Origin: Candidatus Poribacteria bacterium
GTDB lineage: Bacteria > Poribacteria > WGA-4E > WGA-3G
Direction of reading: 5' to 3'
DNA length: 64,000 nt
Assembly: GCA_965198235.1 (NCBI GenBank)
Contig: OZ240248.1
Coordinates: 96,001 to 160,000, forward strand
In this document: positions 57,644 to 64,000 of the stretch, piece after piece
Numbering within the stretch: the stretch's first letter is position 1
How the letters are laid out: the number at the start of each line of letters is the position of its first letter
The notes under the pieces: generated by a model
What the model was told of the DNA's origin: nothing
Databases searched by the model: none
What the model saw: only the letters and a program-made list of their open reading frames with translations
Translations under genes and position numbers: made by a program

Positions 57644-58882
57644 TTACTCCTGCGTCTGTCCAGCGACAGCTGATGCCCGTGCACCTACACCAAGCACCGC
57701 CAAAAATCCTTCTGAATCGGCATGGTCAAAGTCGCCAATCGCCTCCATAGATGCGGTCTCTTCAGAGTAGAGCGAATGCGGAGCACCACCTGCGGCATAG
57801 AACGCGACGTTCCCCTTGTAGAGTGCAACTGTAATGGTTCCACTCGCTAAGTTAGTAAGCGGTTCAATAGAAGCCAGCAGGGCTTGCGTCGCAGCATCGA
57901 ACCAGTAACCCTGATAAATCTGTTCCGCAATCGTGGCGGCTACGCCATCAAAGTGTCGGCGCGCCCGTCTATCTAAAATCAGTTGCAGCAGATACTCGTA
58001 ACACTTCCCAAGCAATTCCATCCCCGGAGATTCATAAACGCCACGGCTCTTAATCCCGACGAACCGGTTTTCAACGGTGTGAATGCCGATCCCGACACCA
58101 TTTCGTCCACCGATGCGATTTGCCTCTAATAGACTCTGGAGGGATGTGACAGGGCTTCCGTTAACTTCAACAGGTGTTCCCCGCGCAAAGGTGACCGTAA
58201 AGTGCTCTACATCATCAGGCGCGTCTTTTGGATGGACTCCCATGCCGGGGGTAATAAAACCAGCAGGAGTTTTCAGTGATTCGAGCCGTCCAGCTTCATG
58301 TGTAAGTCCGAGTAGGTTCGCGTCGGTTGAGTAAGGTTTCTCGTGTGTAGCAGTAATAGGTAGGTTATGTGCTTGGCAGAAGTCTATCATCTCTTTCCTG
58401 CCACCGAACACTTTGAGAAAGTTCGGATCTCGCCACGGGGCATAAACAGCAAAGTGTGGATTGAGCATATTGGTAGCGAGTTGAAACCGCACCTGATCGT
58501 TGCCTCTGCCGGTTGCGCCGTGTGTTAATATAGCAATACCGCGCTTTTCCATCTCTGGCAGGAGTGCTTCCACCGTAACATGTCTCGCGATGCCAGTCGT
58601 ATTCCAATACCCACCTTCATACATGGCTTGGCACTGGACGAGGCGGATGCCCGCTTCTGCAAGCGCGTCTTTCGCATCTACAATAATGGCATCTTCGGCA
58701 CCGCATGCCAACATCCGTTCCCGAATTTCGGAAACGTCTCGTTCGTCAGGTTGTCCGAGGTCTGCCGTAAAACAGACGACCTTGACCCCATTATCGACTA
58801 ACCACTTGGTGATAGTACAACTATCCAAGCCACCAGAAACAGCGGCACCCACCGTTTTTCCTTTTAATGTATCAATATTCAA
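57644..58882 (-). CDS. argG: Argininosuccinate synthase
   Basis: SGGLDS, HGATGRGNDQVRF, ENRFVGIKSRGVYESPG. Confidence 0.95.
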   Translation of the reverse strand: MNIDTLKGKTVGAAVSGGLDSCTITKWLVDNGVKVVCFTADLGQPDERDVSEIRERMLACGAEDAIIVDAKDALAEAGIRLVQCQAMYEGGYWNTTGIARHVTVEALLPEMEKRGIAILTHGATGRGNDQVRFQLATNMLNPHFAVYAPWRDPNFLKVFGGRKEMIDFCQAHNLPITATHEKPYSTDANLLGLTHEAGRLESLKTPAGFITPGMGVHPKDAPDDVEHFTVTFARGTPVEVNGSPVTSLQSLLEANRIGGRNGVGIGIHTVENRFVGIKSRGVYESPGMELLGKCYEYLLQLILDRRARRHFDGVAATIAEQIYQGYWFDAATQALLASIEPLTNLASGTITVALYKGNVAFYAAGGAPHSLYSEETASMEAIGDFDHADSEGFLAVLGVGARASAVAGQTQE

Positions 58883-58982
58883 AAGCAGTCTCCAAGGTAT
58901 TGTGTATTAAGTTATGACGGAATTATACCACTTTTTGGTGCAGCTTGCAAATCAATATTGAGACATTGAATAAAAAATAGAT

Positions 58983-59011
58983 TTGACAATTTATCTCATT
59001 TATAGCATAAT
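58983..59011 (+). promoter_or_regulatory. Sigma-70-like promoter
   Basis: TTGACA-17nt-CATAAT, about 190 nt upstream of the 983-aa ORF. Confidence 0.65.
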
Positions 59012-59199
59012 AATCCAAAGGATGCGACGGCACCTGCTCCATCTGAAGCAACCAACCTGAGAGGGGAAGGTAGCGAGACTTTTCTCCCACGCCCTCTCAC
59101 AAACCGCATTAGGTTCGCAATTTTCACACGATTCTCTCAAGTCGTTTCTAAGGTTCGTAAAAACCCAAGAACGTCCATTTTCTACGGAGATTTCCGCAC

Positions 59200-62151
59200 A
59201 TGGAATCTGTGAAGGATATTATCCAACAGTGCCATGAACAGCGACAGAAGGTCATGCAACAGCGGAAGACTATCGTTTCACCTGCTTTGTATGGGAATTA
59301 TTTTTACCATTACACAGTGCATTGTGCGCATCGGTATCCGCTGCTTTTGCATGCGCTTGAACAGGCAGATATTTCGTTTATGCCCATTGGACAGGCACCA
59401 TTCGATCGGGGTCCAGCGTATTGTGGTGGCAATCGTTTCTTAAGACGACAAGGCACACTCGACTGGAGCCCGAGGCGATGGTTTTCGTCATGGGGTATTC
59501 AGATCTATACAGGAACGCCATCTGCGCGCGACGGGGCTAACTGGCATGACATCGAGTTCACCTACAGAGCGATCCGCGACGCGCCTGATGCCGTTGTTGC
59601 ATGTGTGGACGCACTCGTCAACGCTGTTATAAATCCGCTACTCACCTTACTCAAGGGTGGAGGCTTACGGTTTTCGTGTCGAGTGCCGGACTATCTTCAT
59701 CCGAACACAACGGACGCAAGGCAATATATTCATAAGCATCTACCTGACATAGATCATACCCGCGATAGAGATATCTATGTAGACATCGTTGGGGATAAAG
59801 GCTTTACTCGTTGGGATGCCCGCTATGAAATTCTTAAGGGGAGCCTATTAGATCCGCCCATCATTTCTAAAGATGTGCTTTTTGCGTTTCTCGATGTCTT
59901 GCGAGAGTTGCTACATGAACCCGCCCCGGCATCAGAATTAGACACGATAGATGAAGCGATCGTGGATACACAGGATTTCGACGATTTTGCTGTCATAGAA
60001 TCTTTAGAAACAGAGCAAGTTGTAAATGAAAATATCCTTGCGGTGCGACGCGGTGAGCTTTCTCCGACTGGAATCAGACGACCGAAACCTATCCTTGAAA
60101 AACTGGAACGCACTGAGGCGGAGGATGAGAGGAATCTCTTTGAAGGGGAAGAACGCATTCTTGGGCTTGTCACGGGTTTGATAAGTACTGAAAAGAAACG
60201 TGAGATTGAAGCCTCCTTTCTCAATACCGTCCCTATATGTGTCAACTCTAATACCGTTTATGACGCAGAGGACGCACAGCGGTATTACGAGCGACAGGGA
60301 ATTACCGTCGGGCGATGGAAACCGCGAAACTATCGCTGGGAACAGGCGAAGGAGGAACCGCTTGCTGAACGGATGCAGAACCCTTTTGCGCATGGGAACG
60401 TCTGCGAAGATGCTGAAAGATGTGATGCGTTGGAGCAGAAGGGCGGTGATCCGAATAAAAGTATTTGCCCGAGTTGTCCCGTTTATGACGCGTGTCAAGA
60501 GCGCGGGTATCTTTCTCAATTTACTGTGCTACGGGAGAAACAGGTCATCGTATCTGATATTTCTAACCTCTTTTTGGATCGGCAGTATGAGATGTGCATT
60601 GATGCTGTGATTGAATCGGAGCGGCTCTGCATTGTCAACGATTCCGAATCGCAGATTGCGAACCTCTTTTCGGAGTGTCATCTACCGAGAGAGGTTTTGG
60701 AGGGTTGGATTACCCATTGGAACGGCTCTGCTTTAGGACGCTTCGCGAAGACGCTACTCAATGCGATTCGGATCACAGATCGACTTCATGGCGATATTGT
60801 CAAGCGTGTCCGCACAGTCGTTCAGGCATTTGAAGGTTTGGAAGGGGCTCTTATCAGCGAGATGTGTCAGGTGAATTGCCCAATCGAGAGAGATGGTGAT
60901 GAGATTGCCATAAGCATGGATGAAGCGATCCAGTTAGGGATTTTGGATGTATCCACATCCGAAAGCATCAAGAGGTTCCCAACGGTTTCTTGGAACCCGG
61001 ATTGGACATTTTGGCATCAACTGAAATCCTTTTTTTCGCACTACCCTCGCGATACGGACGCGCCTCTGTTTGTTGATGAAGGTGTGTTGAGATTCTGGTT
61101 ACCACCGGTGCTACATCAACGGGTCAAGAAACTTATATTCATGTCACCTTCGGCTTCAGAAAACCATTTAAAGCAAGCGTTCCCGGATGCGTCAGTGGCG
61201 GTGAGAGCGGTTGAGATACTGGAGGCATCGATTCAGGAGAACAGAGTTTTCCAGTTGCGGAGTGCAACACACACCGCACGCGCAATCACGAATTACGATG
61301 TCGATTGGGATGTGTATGGTCTCTCGAAAATCGGGCATCGTTTCTTTCTCAGTATCCATCGTGATATAGAAAAGCACCCAGATCGCAATCATGTTGTTAT
61401 ATCGAGTTTGGGGGCAGTTTCGATGTTAAAAGATGTGTTTGGTGGGAGGGTCCTTACCTACACGGATCTCGTCAGAGACACCTCAGAAGATGTCGCAGAT
61501 GTTGTTTGGGTAGTCGGAACGCCTTACTTTCCTCCGAGTTTTATCTGGGAACAGGCGAAAATATTGTTTGGAAACCAAGTCGAGCCGTTAAGTTATAATC
61601 TGACGATGAACCCTTATCAATTCGAAGATGAACGCATACAAGAACTCTACGAACAGAATGCTATAGGTGTACTGACACAGATTGTCCGTATCGCTGGATT
61701 CAATGAGGCATCAGATAAAACGCTGATTCTCAACACGGCTTTGCGGATACCCTCTGTCACCGACGCGCCAGAGACGGAATTGTTTGATTGGGAAGACTTC
61801 GAGATCGCTGGTGGGTTGGATGAACTTTCAGAGACGATTCGGATACGTGAGGGGTACGAGGCAGAATACGCGAACATGGATGCGTCTTGGAGCCGAAAAC
61901 GCGTTGAATATTTGCTTGGTGTTTCTAAGGCGCAAGCGAACCGCATCTTGATGAGATTGAGGGGTAGTAAACTCGAGCGGATCCCATTTCATGTGCAGAT
62001 TTTCGAGCTGCTCTCGGATGGAGAGAAAACAACATCTGAAATCCTTGAATCAATTCAGGGGAATCCGGGCTCCATTAAAAACGAACTCACCCATCTTGTA
62101 GAAATGGGTGAGATTGTCAGGATCCGGCGCGGTGTTTATGCGTTAGCATAG
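59200..62151 (+). CDS. Large hypothetical protein: Prim-Pol-like N-terminus, Cys cluster, degenerate helicase-like core, C-terminal HTH/wHTH
   Basis: WGIQIYTG...HDIEF...GGGLRF...VDIVG; CEDAERC...CPSCPVYDAC; LIFMSPS; VWVVGTP; C-terminal SIKNELTHLVEMGEIVRIRRGVY. Confidence 0.6.
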   Translation: MESVKDIIQQCHEQRQKVMQQRKTIVSPALYGNYFYHYTVHCAHRYPLLLHALEQADISFMPIGQAPFDRGPAYCGGNRFLRRQGTLDWSPRRWFSSWGIQIYTGTPSARDGANWHDIEFTYRAIRDAPDAVVACVDALVNAVINPLLTLLKGGGLRFSCRVPDYLHPNTTDARQYIHKHLPDIDHTRDRDIYVDIVGDKGFTRWDARYEILKGSLLDPPIISKDVLFAFLDVLRELLHEPAPASELDTIDEAIVDTQDFDDFAVIESLETEQVVNENILAVRRGELSPTGIRRPKPILEKLERTEAEDERNLFEGEERILGLVTGLISTEKKREIEASFLNTVPICVNSNTVYDAEDAQRYYERQGITVGRWKPRNYRWEQAKEEPLAERMQNPFAHGNVCEDAERCDALEQKGGDPNKSICPSCPVYDACQERGYLSQFTVLREKQVIVSDISNLFLDRQYEMCIDAVIESERLCIVNDSESQIANLFSECHLPREVLEGWITHWNGSALGRFAKTLLNAIRITDRLHGDIVKRVRTVVQAFEGLEGALISEMCQVNCPIERDGDEIAISMDEAIQLGILDVSTSESIKRFPTVSWNPDWTFWHQLKSFFSHYPRDTDAPLFVDEGVLRFWLPPVLHQRVKKLIFMSPSASENHLKQAFPDASVAVRAVEILEASIQENRVFQLRSATHTARAITNYDVDWDVYGLSKIGHRFFLSIHRDIEKHPDRNHVVISSLGAVSMLKDVFGGRVLTYTDLVRDTSEDVADVVWVVGTPYFPPSFIWEQAKILFGNQVEPLSYNLTMNPYQFEDERIQELYEQNAIGVLTQIVRIAGFNEASDKTLILNTALRIPSVTDAPETELFDWEDFEIAGGLDELSETIRIREGYEAEYANMDASWSRKRVEYLLGVSKAQANRILMRLRGSKLERIPFHVQIFELLSDGEKTTSEILESIQGNPGSIKNELTHLVEMGEIVRIRRGVYALA

Positions 62152-62254
62152 TCAGGTATCTATCCTTTCAAACCGCATTTTTTGCACAAAATTCATCAAA
62201 AATAAGATTTTTTCATACAAAAATTGCTTTTTTTTACAATTTTTGTATTTTTTC

Positions 62255-62283
62255 TTGCAAAACCGGATTAATTGATGTATAAT
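62255..62283 (+). promoter_or_regulatory. Sigma-70-like promoter with no downstream ORF
   Basis: TTGCAA-17nt-TATAAT after an A/T-rich UP-like tract. Confidence 0.65.
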
Positions 62284-62288
62284 TTAAA

Positions 62289-62422
62289 TATGACTGAAAT
62301 CCATTCATACATCATACGTCATCATGATTTCAGTCATACTCCAAATTCAAAAGGAGATTGGTAGAGCGCAGAGAGGAAAATTCCAGAAGCGCATCCTCTC
62401 TGCCGCTCGCCAACTCCTTCTT
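62289..62422 (+). ncRNA. Candidate structured small RNA (two hairpins)
   Basis: Perfect 13-bp stem 62289-62301/62326-62338 starting at the expected +1; long bulged stem 62351-62419. Confidence 0.45.
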
Positions 62423-62645
62423 CAAGCCACCCCGGCGAATACACTCTCACATGCCCGACAGATAGGAATATTTGTTGCATCCATACTATACTAACCTAAC
62501 CCAAGTTGCTACGGACAAGATTTTAGGTATGCAGATGCCGTTTTTCATCAAAGAGGTCTGCGCAAGCCTCTATAGGAAACCTGCGGGACAATATCCGTAG
62601 AGGTTTGTCGCGTAAACTTTCAGTTTGCGCACGTGTATGCAGAAT

Positions 62646-63827
62646 CTAAAAGATTATGCTACAAAGGTGGGAACTTGGGTTATACAAATAAGCATCTGCA
62701 ATAGTTTCATTCACCGTCTCACGCCACGAATCTTCAAATAGCATCCGGAAAGACATCGTTTTATTATTGGGTGCGGTGATATTCATTGTGCCGTGTGATG
62801 TAGCGTTTCGATATGTTGTTTCTAATGTTTTAATAAGTTGCTGTTTATAGGTGGTATCGTTATTTCCTTCAAGATGTTGCCCTTTAGTTTCAAAGATGCA
62901 GAGCCTTTGCGGTCCCGTTTGACTCCGTTGGATACAGGCGATAAAGTCTGGATAGACGCGGTCACGTCGCCACCCTTGTAAAAAGTACCCCTGCCTCGCA
63001 GCAATGCGGTGCCACCATTCAATCGCGCTCTGTTTGTCTATGTAGAGTGCAAAATCTGTTTCTAAATTGTTGAATTCTGCTTCAAAGACTTGTTCAAATA
63101 GATTAAGTTGTAACGGATCCCCGTGCGGATGCATCATCGGTTTTGCCTCAGGTGTGAGGCTGACCACGAGTGTTCTTTCCAGTTGGTAGTTTAACTCGCT
63201 ATCTGTTTGCAAGTTAAACTGGATCTTTCCGGCTTCCAACTTTTCTTTGAAAACGGTCTCAGCGAGTTTATCAATGCGATCGCGCAAACGACGTTTCAGG
63301 TACTCGGAAAGATACAACCGGTGTGTATACAACGTTTCTTCGTCGACACCTTCTTCACGGTAGGCAGCGAGCGTTGCCTTCACGATGCGTGCGGCGTGCC
63401 AGGGATTTGGAAGTACATCACCCAACCGCCGGACGAAAAATGCTACCTCCAAGTTGTGTGCCGCACTTTCTTGCAACTTTTTATCAATCACCGCTTCGTC
63501 TTGGAGATGGATGGTCGCACGGATCTCTTGAAGTTGTGCCGCCTCGCCTAAGTTGATAGGTGCTACCGGACCGAGTTGATGCCAGTCGATTGCACTGAGG
63601 ATGTCGCGCTCATAATTGAGTTCCCGCCAACTTCGTCCTTGCTTATGCAGTACACGCGGCAGAAAGATGTCTATATTGCGATATTCTTGCTTGCGTTCAA
63701 TAGTCCTCTGAACACGTTCCACACCGGCACTTTCAACAAATCCACCAAGCCCGGTTAACCCCTCTGCCTCTAAACCCTTCTTGACATTGCTAACAGCTGC
63801 CCCGACTCCTTGATTGTAGCAGAAGAT
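62646..63827 (-). pseudogene. C-terminal part of a type III restriction Res-like helicase-nuclease, interrupted by IS605
   Basis: VYPDFI...IFETKG nuclease motif; frame extends 35 codons past the track start (IFCYNQGVGAAVSNVKKGLEAEGL) up to the IS end. Confidence 0.75.
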
Positions 63828-64000
63828 TTGACATCCTCTCCAGTCTAAAGACTGGAGATTCCTTTTGTCCCTTGTAGAGACATTCCTTGGGTTTAAGCCA
63901 AGGCAACAGGGACTTCCAAACGAAAGCCCAAGGGCGGTGCCATCCGGGTAAAACCCATTGCCGCCACTACAGGGTCGCCTAAACCACCCTGATACTTTCT
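63828..64000 (-). mobile_element. Right end and omegaRNA region of an IS200/IS605 element continuing beyond the window
   Basis: Minus strand ends GAATCTCCAGTCTTTAGACTGGAGAGGATGTCAA, preceded by several stems. Confidence 0.8.

Follow-up and report, generated by a model that had tools for sequence, protein, structure and literature searches.

A chromosomal cassette of one Poribacteria genus: a putative primase-helicase descendant without motor motifs and its co-inherited promoter-hairpin element

What is a protein with primase- and helicase-like parts doing as a solitary chromosomal gene, and does the structured sequence next to it belong to it? The question arises from a 64,000-nucleotide stretch of a Candidatus Poribacteria genome (the window; G000:C1:96001-160000, assembly size 5.17 Mb), in which an initial annotation made from the sequence alone described a stand-alone open reading frame (ORF) of 983 amino acids (aa), here named P0001. 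The ORF sits alone on the plus strand between argG and a minus-strand Res-like ORF. P0001 is part of one 3.45-kb chromosomal cassette (~58960-62450) that is confined to a single genus of Poribacteria, which are sponge symbionts. The cassette comprises, in order, promoter 1, a conserved leader, a gene for a protein of ~1000 aa, an A+T-rich spacer, promoter 2, a 48-nt inverted repeat in one to three copies, and a terminator-like hairpin. Sequence relationships indicate that the protein descends from mobile-element primase-helicases, with the ATP-motor motifs lost and the primase-like, Cys-cluster and DNA-binding parts kept. The features of the cassette, and of argG ahead of it, are as follows (AEP, archaeo-eukaryotic primase; Prim-Pol, primase-polymerase; NTPase, nucleoside triphosphatase; HTH, helix-turn-helix).

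57644-58882, minus strand: argG (argininosuccinate synthase), Pfam match at 8e-47
58983-59011, plus strand: promoter 1 of the 983-aa gene, TTGACA-17-CATAAT (11 of 12 matches; conserved in ortholog alignment A6)
59012-59199, plus strand: 5' leader, conserved in sequence, with a GGAG Shine-Dalgarno sequence ~10 nt ahead of the ATG
59200-62151, plus strand: P0001, open reading frame of 983 aa
59200-59949, plus strand: N-terminal domain, residues 1-250, AEP/Prim-Pol-like by motif pattern (D117-x-E119, G154-G155-L-R157, W205-D206-A-R208-Y-E)
60145-61779, plus strand: helicase-like core, residues 316-860, with degenerate NTPase motifs (from alignments with relatives and a tally over 77 orthologs)
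60403-60495, plus strand: Cys cluster C402-x20-C423-x2-C426-x5-C432, a candidate [4Fe-4S] or Zn site, near-invariant in alignment A1
61780-62148, plus strand: C-terminal region, residues 861-983, with a family-wide motif, a possible first HTH and a putative terminal winged helix at ~930-983 (sub-threshold Pfam matches)
62152-62254, plus strand: A+T-rich spacer with a short inverted repeat, ATACAAAAATTG...CAATTTTTGTAT, seen in the sequence and the alignment
62255-62283, plus strand: promoter 2, TTGCAA-17-TATAAT (10 of 12 matches; near-invariant in orthologous loci, alignment A3)
62289-62338, plus strand: inverted repeat or hairpin 1, ATGACTGAAATC...GATTTCAGTCAT, with conserved arms and a loop of variable sequence
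62351-62419, plus strand: long hairpin 3 followed by a T-rich run, terminator-like (from its fold and its pairing across 21 loci)

Inheritance of the cassette at one site

In a phylum sample of 121 genomes, the protein family was identified only in the family-level group f1 (63 of 81 genomes, many of them with several matches) and in none of 39 genomes from seven other families. True orthologs, with at least 62% identity over the full length, are present in about 20 genomes of the window's genus. The window genome has a single full copy and, elsewhere, a separate 164-aa ORF that is homologous to the C-terminus. Gene order is shared by about 21 of 22 long ortholog loci: GATase-like, sulfatase, MoxR, argG (minus strand), the P0001 ortholog, the downstream element, a variable stretch of 0-8 kb, then vgb-like, lplA, FGE, phyH and a TonB receptor. 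The flanking genes are 90-98% identical between loci, as against 67-78% for the P0001 orthologs, which evolve faster than their neighbours.

Five genomes of the same genus have argG and vgb without the cassette. The -35 box and spacer of promoter 1 are still in place in one of them (G056), and its empty site is therefore explained by deletion. When placed on a single-gene argG tree, which recombination may have affected, the five cassette-less genomes are scattered among carriers, which requires five changes, at least four of them forced by well-supported branches. One clade displays decay in steps: locus L022 has the full cassette, L027 has the gene without the downstream element, and in G056 nothing is left. 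The cassette is ancestral to the genus at the argG/vgb site, dispensable, and has been lost at least four times. Whole-genome GC skew was too noisy to position the locus relative to the origin or terminus of replication.

The P0001 protein and its relatives

Searches with P0001 gave nothing above threshold in Pfam or PADLOC, no match in NCBIfam or in a PDB sequence search, no significant match in two PDB profile searches, and a single match in PHROGs (E 0.08) to a family of unknown function. We found no description of the P0001 family in the literature on Poribacteria primases and helicases, BT4734 and AEP-PriCT-2-helicase fusions (supplements excluded). Judged by its sequence relatives, P0001 is a member of a large unannotated family descended from primase-helicase-HTH proteins. 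This family has at least 1088 proteins (E <= 1e-3, among the candidates scored), which form 389 clusters at 50% identity. A Pfam scan of 40 diverse members identified BT4734-like_N in 10, PriCT_2 in 6 and DEAD in 5, as well as many HTH families. Where these occur in single proteins their order is BT4734-like_N (~58-180), PriCT_2 (~222-295), a core with a weak DEAD match at the Walker A region, and a C-terminal HTH. Intact members carry an N-terminal primase module (either BT4734-like AEP plus PriCT-2 or the N-domain type of P0001), a four-Cys cluster, a P-loop core with motifs of superfamily 2 (SF2) type, and the C-terminal HTH. The proposal in the initial annotation of a domesticated or inactivated primase-helicase is borne out as to descent and as to the missing NTPase motifs, but not as to inactivation of the primase.

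P0001 matches relatives with intact motifs at phmmer E values of 1e-30 to 1e-100 over residues ~280-930. Distant relatives and some paralogs read ADTGxGK[NT], hhD[DE], MSATL and QAxGRARL at the NTPase motifs. P0001 has VTGLISTEKKR at the Walker A position (324-334), IVNDSES at the Walker B position (478-484), FMSPS at motif III and QIVRIAGF at motif VI. The ortholog clade, defined as 77 proteins of at least 900 aa that are 62-100% identical to P0001, reads VTG(L/S)ISTEKKR at the first of these positions, with Walker A in 0 of 77, mostly IINDSES at Walker B, ISPA or MSPS at motif III and RIAGF at motif VI. Thus, the early remark that P0001 has no intact Walker A or DEAH was correct, and the loss is common to the whole clade. 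Most orthologs are 1006-1008 aa long; in the window copy, 26 aa have been deleted behind residue 763. Pairwise dN/dS is 0.16-0.24 for the whole protein, 0.11-0.25 for the dead core, 0.12-0.26 for the N-domain and 0.06-0.13, the lowest values, for the C-terminal region. All domains are thus under purifying selection despite the loss of motifs, and the gene is a maintained pseudo-NTPase rather than a decaying one. The description of the core as helicase-derived holds, and its assignment to SF2 is tentative because the Pfam DEAD matches in relatives are weak (best 1.4e-5, in 5 of 40) and limited to the Walker A region.

The central Cys cluster noted at the outset (CEDAERC...CPSCPVYDAC, residues 402-432) is real and family-wide. 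C402, C423, C426 and C432 lie between the Walker A and Walker B positions, are conserved at >= 90% in alignment A1 and occur in 77 of 77 orthologs; C408 is an additional, clade-specific Cys. A spacing of C-x(n)-C-x2-C-x5-C characterises the [4Fe-4S] sites of WhiB-like regulators, AddB/Dna2/Cas4 and EndoIII/MutY, and XPD/DinG-type helicases have an Fe-S cluster in lobe 1, between Walker A and B. P0001 shares with these enzymes and regulators the four Cys with x2/x5 spacing and the insertion between the Walker A and B positions. It differs from them in that it has no sequence homology to any of them, WhiB being the sole PDB profile match over the Cys stretch (E ~1 with the family profile, non-significant), and in that the metal site here is predicted. 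The cluster probably holds [4Fe-4S], and Zn is equally possible from sequence.

Two HTH units had been placed at the end of the protein. The terminal ~50 residues do match winged-helix models, all below threshold (AbiEi_4 at 24.2 bits against a cut-off of 25, HTH_5, TrmB and HTH_20), whereas the first unit is a pattern only. The protein is not identified as an AbiEi antitoxin: AbiEi_4 scores 20.3-24.2 bits against the cut-off of 25 and over the last 21 residues only, and no AbiEii toxin gene is adjacent. The most widely conserved stretch of the family is ITDxPETxLFDWEDFEIAGGLDxL at residues 850-885 (window ~61747-61854), which has no known-domain match; F862 and D866 are conserved at >= 90% in A1, and D866 also in A2. 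For the stand-alone 164-aa ORF of the window genome (G000:C1:4802414-4802764, locus L002), homology is confined to the last ~116 residues of family members. This ORF is 50% identical to P0001 and 67% to the paralog P0080, and may be a remnant or an independent winged-helix gene.

Relatives with a BT4734-type N-terminus align with P0001 only from ~residue 280 onward, so that residues 1-250 of P0001 appear to be a second, unannotated N-terminal module in the slot of the BT4734-like one. We consider an AEP fold for this N-domain probable. Its motifs D-x-E, G-L-R and W-D resemble AEP motifs I-III in their order and spacing; AEP motif I (hhhDhD/E) binds metal, motif II (s-x-H) binds nucleotide and motif III reads hD/E. 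In homologs that share the core the same position is held by a true AEP domain (BT4734-like_N plus PriCT_2). Motif I of P0001 reads W-H-D117-I-E119-F; by pattern match, all 77 orthologs have D117 and 75 of them E119, and among 175 N-domains, D117 is found in 165 and an acidic residue at position 119 in 141. Motif III reads W205-D206, with the Asp in 171 of 175 N-domains and W-D206-A-R-Y in 77 of 77 orthologs. The Prim-Pol motifs first proposed are thus present in part: HDIEF (residues 116-120) and GGGLRF (153-158) exist, but position 195, the Asp of 'vDi', lacks conservation, with an acidic residue in 41 of 77 orthologs. Searches of the ESM Atlas were made with P0020, a stored ortholog that is 74% identical to P0001. 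They returned large clusters bearing Prim-Pol, RepB_primase, BT4734-like_N plus ResIII and AEP-TOTE (scores 0.86-0.91), and for residues 1-270 alone 26 of 30 matches were clusters in which 13-64% of members bear Prim-Pol (0.91-0.92).

The motif II position, G154-G155-L-R157, lacks His, and the Arg is found in 77 of 77 orthologs and 173 of 175 N-domains. This substitution had been taken as a sign of an inactivated primase. According to the portions of PMC11724360 covered, BT4734-like AEPs carry Lys at the position of the motif II His (G-L-K) and are active. The Arg therefore does not imply inactivation, and the acidic residues of P0001 are kept.

Intact relatives with BT4734-like-N, PriCT-2 and the same core (P0299, P0301 and P0313) are 64-72% identical in metagenome-assembled genomes (MAGs) labelled Poribacteria, Flavobacteriales and Acidimicrobiaceae; identity at this level across differently labelled phyla suggests that the active form, with its motifs intact, spread horizontally and was recently transferred between phyla. 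A scan of IMG/VR viral contigs with the BT4734-type subgroup gave only PriCT-2 matches and no core relatives, a scan of JGI metagenome contigs found no relative, and P0226, when searched against the 81 f1 genomes, matched partially at five places in genus g2, in uninformative context. In family f1, a genome may have as many as 19 matches to paralogs of ~1130 aa, whose NTPase motifs are intact in some and degenerate in others. The paralogs are solitary genes with their own promoters. We considered whether they are parts of a larger mobile element and found no support for this: nucleotide similarity among non-syntenic paralog loci stops at the gene borders, and common flanking repeats were not seen. 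Genome G100 has three equal-scoring copies at contig ends (C2:8440-9699, C3:4819-6078 and C3:4200003-4201262), which suggests a long recent repeat.

The leader, the downstream element and the adjoining hotspot

Both sigma-70-like promoters of the initial annotation exist and are conserved in orthologous loci. A promoter scan found 9 sites against 7.2 +/- 3.2 in shuffled sequence, a number not above chance, and support for promoters 1 and 2 therefore rests on their conservation. Promoter 1 is conserved even in loci in which the argG-proximal sequence differs. The folded leader that was reported between it and the gene did not hold up as a structure. The leader of ~190 nt is conserved at 72-87% BLASTN identity in ortholog loci. 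Its fold is at z = -1.73, with 8 of 200 shuffles as good, RNAalifold gives almost no consensus structure (-0.81 kcal/mol), and covariation is weak and within what related sequences give. A start-codon-sequestering stem could form between TCCAT (59039-59043) and the complementary ATGGA at the start codon (59200-59204); it is 85% paired across 21 loci, with one pair changed from G-C to A-U in 7. An 11-mer, CAAACCGCATT, occurs both in the leader (59100-59110) and just past the stop codon (62169-62179), where we estimate that ~0.04 such matches would be expected by chance. This is borderline and was not used.

The downstream element is a conserved promoter-plus-hairpin unit that is co-inherited with the gene. 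The stretch 62152-62450 is conserved at 70-87% in ortholog loci, and 62285-62430, the two-hairpin stretch seen after the second promoter in the initial annotation, folds far better than shuffled sequence (z = -7.83, equalled by 0 of 200 shuffles) and occurs nowhere else in the genome. Hairpin 1 is present once in the window, twice in most orthologous loci and three times in L025. A regular expression for promoter 2 matches in ortholog loci, with a single stray match far from the gene in a paralog locus (L054). Hairpin 3 has 89% of cells paired across 21 loci and 11 double-change cells, a number attained by 13 of 500 shuffles. Rfam 15 gave three sub-threshold chance matches only over 58000-64000.

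In 17 of 20 carriers, counted over genomes covered by both surveys, the ortholog is immediately followed by the element. The other three are G111, which has a deletion, and G054 and G078, two divergent genomes in which BLAST may merely have missed it. The element was found in 0 of 22 genomes that lack an ortholog-level match, and there is no second copy in the window genome. L028, a 62% ortholog in a different genomic context, keeps promoter 2 and a diverged hairpin 1. Thus, the leader sequence and the downstream element travel with the orthologs, but the Res gene does not, and a fold of the leader is unsupported; co-occurrence of leader, RNA and defence genes had been put forward in the initial annotation as a check.

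Other explanations of this stretch were rejected. A 24-aa frame from the ATG in hairpin 1 is interrupted by stops in L019, L026 and L031, and a 56-aa frame from the right arm varies in length from 2 to 114 aa among loci; neither was accepted as a gene. Nor is the element the 5' leader of vgb: that gene has a separate promoter, and only past the hairpins is the sequence again homologous to that of cassette-less genomes.

Four sponge metatranscriptome runs from one study (libraries X1-X4; assembled contigs, in which DNA carry-over is possible) include contigs over the ORF. These were not counted as evidence, nor were the following contig borders, which are weak hints at most. Contigs of X2-X4 begin at 59028/59029, with the bin 58888-59031 almost empty; in X1 one contig ends at 62261 and the next starts at 62306, flanking promoter 2; and X2-X4 have no cover over 62200-62487.

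A variable insertion hotspot begins at ~62450, and the following features in the window lie outside the cassette.

62497-62632, no strand assigned: repeats resembling repetitive extragenic palindromes (REP) or miniature inverted-repeat transposable elements (MITE), 38 matches in the genome; they mark where the variable insertion region starts
62646-63998, minus strand (ORF 62646 to beyond 63998): C-terminal fragment of type III Res, PADLOC REase_III at 2.3e-77

The repeats are mosaic: a 36-nt hairpin (62557-62592) and a second module (62497-62533) recur, some of the 38 genome matches are 100% identical, and many different RNA-library contigs end in such repeats. The restriction gene that was presented as a neighbour of P0001 covers only positions 477-878 of the 883 in the PADLOC profile, which is the C-terminal part of a type III Res. 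No Mod gene was found among the ORFs beyond it. A TnpB gene (OrfB_IS605 plus Cas12f TNB; L088:1894-3135, window coordinates 63893-65134) abuts its truncated 5' side, and a DDE transposase is encoded at L088:15679-16692. Thus, the early statement that no mobile genes are nearby holds within the window but not just beyond its end, where the TnpB gene lies. We conclude that the Res gene is incidental, because it is fragmentary, occurs in 5 of 22 long ortholog loci and is also found next to argG in G134, which lacks the cassette. The Res fragment, TnpB and REP-like repeats are unrelated to the cassette. In a separate observation at the argG site, the cassette-less genome G056 has the argG 5' end and promoter region duplicated ~1 kb apart around an inserted segment (L102; G056:C1:101600-109700).

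Proposed function and alternatives

We favour, at a probability of roughly 0.55, a reading in which P0001 is a non-motor nucleic-acid binder, specific for a site or structure, that may still prime. The protein would no longer work as a motor. Its winged helix and dead helicase lobes would bind nucleic acid in a site- or structure-specific manner, and the N-domain, which retains the acidic and basic residues of its motifs, may still be able to synthesise short primers or DNA. The predicted target is the co-inherited downstream element. With its A+T-rich tract and repeated inverted repeats, this would most simply be the former origin or iteron region of an ancestral mobile replicon, and promoter 2 may today give rise to a small transcript of it.

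The closest precedents are the AEP primase-helicase replicases such as pRN1 ORF904, which in the portions of PMC5862659 covered combine an N-terminal primase with a Zn/Cys or PriCT module and an NTPase/helicase core, and end in a winged helix whose proposed role is origin recognition. The relatives of P0001 match this layout with BT4734-like_N, PriCT_2, a P-loop core and HTH. P0001 differs from them in a core that is SF2-like rather than of SF3, MCM or DnaB-like type, in the clade-wide loss of NTPase motifs, in an N-domain without a significant AEP model match, and in being encoded by a chromosomal, syntenic and vertically inherited gene. AEPs fused to remote SF2-like domains are described in the All3500 family by Kazlauskas et al. 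(2018; PMC5862659), the covered passages of which mention neither dead motors nor Poribacteria. The BT4734-like (VirE_N) PrimPols AgaPP and CAPP_B, as presented in the covered part of PMC11724360, have D-h-D/E ... G-L-[basic] ... h-D, to which D-I-E, G-L-R and W-D of P0001 correspond at comparable spacing. P0001 has Arg instead of Lys, homology between the two N-domain types is not detectable, and its core is fused, whereas the helicase partner of AgaPP is a separate DUF3987 protein (same source and portions).

Two further kinds of module resemble the cassette in layout. Plasmid Rep-plus-origin cassettes place a Rep gene beside an A+T-rich tract with iterons or inverted repeats, and the RepB' primase of RSF1010 recognises ssi hairpins. 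In the present locus, too, a Rep-like gene is immediately followed by an A+T-rich tract and by an inverted repeat that is present one to three times. It differs in that a near-invariant sigma-70 promoter leads into the repeats, which are followed by a terminator-like hairpin, and in that the protein lacks motor motifs; a replication role is putative. Retron modules and those of defence-associated reverse transcriptases (DRT) place a polymerase gene beside a structured, separately promoted non-coding RNA (ncRNA). The cassette shares with them a polymerase-like gene adjoining a short, structured, separately promoted element. The protein here is AEP-like rather than a reverse transcriptase, and the element is downstream and is known from sequence alone.

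Several results weigh against the reading that we favour. For the protein, neither an AEP fold nor RecA-like lobes are established, and fold claims are drawn from sequence. Pfam finds nothing in ten N-domains even at E <= 10, hhalign of the N-domain with the BT4734-like N-termini found in relatives of P0001 gives a non-significant P of 0.23, HMM cross-searches between the N-domain types found nothing, and a PDB profile search gave no AEP match for the N-domain. Position 119 is His or Asn in some paralogs, so that the acidic pair is not universal in the family, and the ESM Atlas scores of 0.91-0.92 (147-152 shared features) are leads only, being reached by shuffled proteins in 4-10% of cases. 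For the element, binding by P0001 is purely inferred, and hairpin 1 has no compensatory change (shuffles equal the observed value). G-U pairs are not in excess of A-C mismatches in either hairpin (36 versus 28 and 13 versus 17), and since they are not, a plus-strand RNA, both strands or DNA are all compatible as the target of selection. The hairpin-1 half-site does not occur above chance near promoter 1 or elsewhere in the window. In L027 (genome G111) the element was removed by a 247-bp deletion between short direct repeats and the gene is intact. Paralog loci have no comparable downstream element, which weakens the view of the element as an ancestral origin of replication. Finally, closely related genomes are not independent, and counts of the co-occurrence of element and gene therefore overstate the support.

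Among the alternatives, a role in defence or sensing would make P0001 a PrimPol-like enzyme with a dead helicase as sensor and the adjacent structured ncRNA as template, primer or guide, acting against phages or plasmids by analogy with retrons and DRT. This would suit a gene that is dispensable, repeatedly lost and faster-evolving than its neighbours, in a family expanded to many copies per genome in sponge symbionts. It would also suit a cassette that borders a variable insertion spot with a restriction remnant and insertion sequence (IS) elements, and an element that has a strong promoter to itself and varies in how many hairpin modules it contains. In addition, the BT4734-type N-domains of relatives match the PADLOC models of DRT-associated VirE-PriCT2 and CRISPR-associated PrimPol. 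However, PADLOC gives no match for P0001 or for relatives of the same N-domain type, no effector domain and no conserved partner gene were identified, the Res neighbour is an incidental remnant, and the transcript of the element is only putative, its wobble pairs having no strand bias. We regard this role as unlikely. A new kind of polymerase-plus-ncRNA module, based on an AEP rather than a reverse transcriptase, is quite unlikely: promoter 2 would make a small RNA of one to three hairpins, the ATPase-dead lobes and winged helix would hold this RNA or its DNA template, and a still-catalytic primase would use the RNA as primer or template, with a product by which sponge symbionts would gain immunity to related mobile replicons or keep them under control. 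It is very unlikely that the cassette is a still-selfish remnant. In that case it would be the Rep gene plus origin of a mobile element, integrated or degenerate, which maintains or spreads itself, and the paralogs would be the active copies. Relatives shared between differently labelled MAGs, many dispersed single-gene paralogs with similarity ending at the gene borders, the three copies at contig ends in G100 and the origin-like tract beside the gene fit such a remnant. The ortholog, however, is found at one syntenic site where vertical descent with losses fits better than gains, no integrase, terminal repeats or target duplications were seen, the viral contigs of IMG/VR hold only PriCT-2 matches, and the motor motifs are lost throughout the clade while dN/dS stays low.

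The Cys4 spacing, which is that of Fe-S regulators, and the non-significant WhiB match raise the prospect of a redox- or Fe-S-sensing transcription factor with WhiB-like logic that would control promoter 2 or distant genes, the primase- and helicase-like parts serving as scaffolds. The terminal winged helix and N-domain are the best conserved parts, and hairpin 1, with conserved arms and a variable loop, is operator-like. We hold this to be decidedly improbable, as a scaffold would not need the strict conservation of the putative catalytic D-x-E, R and D, the half-site is absent (above chance) elsewhere in the genome or window, and ~1000 residues is very large for a regulator. It is likewise highly doubtful that the element, as a small RNA gene or bidirectional terminator, is independent of the protein and co-occurs with it only through tight linkage. 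One lineage does carry the gene alone, a separate promoter and a terminator-like hairpin form part of the element, and the equal G-U and A-C counts would fit a hairpin used on both strands. However, no genome has the element in the absence of the gene (0 of 22), the two remain together at the different location of L028, and the element has no match in Rfam. The genes on either side are both plus-strand genes in the basal arrangement, and a minus-strand terminator would therefore have no client.

In summary, the locus offers a caution for the reading of genome neighbourhoods, since an adjacent restriction gene can be a dead remnant in an insertion hotspot. It also draws attention to a family of at least 1088 proteins that has no Pfam model for its N-domain or core and is present in many copies per genome in one family of sponge symbionts. 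The repeated clean losses of the cassette are natural knock-outs among close genomes of an uncultivated phylum. A maintained pseudo-motor tied to a conserved cis-element would be a natural case of a replication protein turned regulator, sensor or helicase-less primase.

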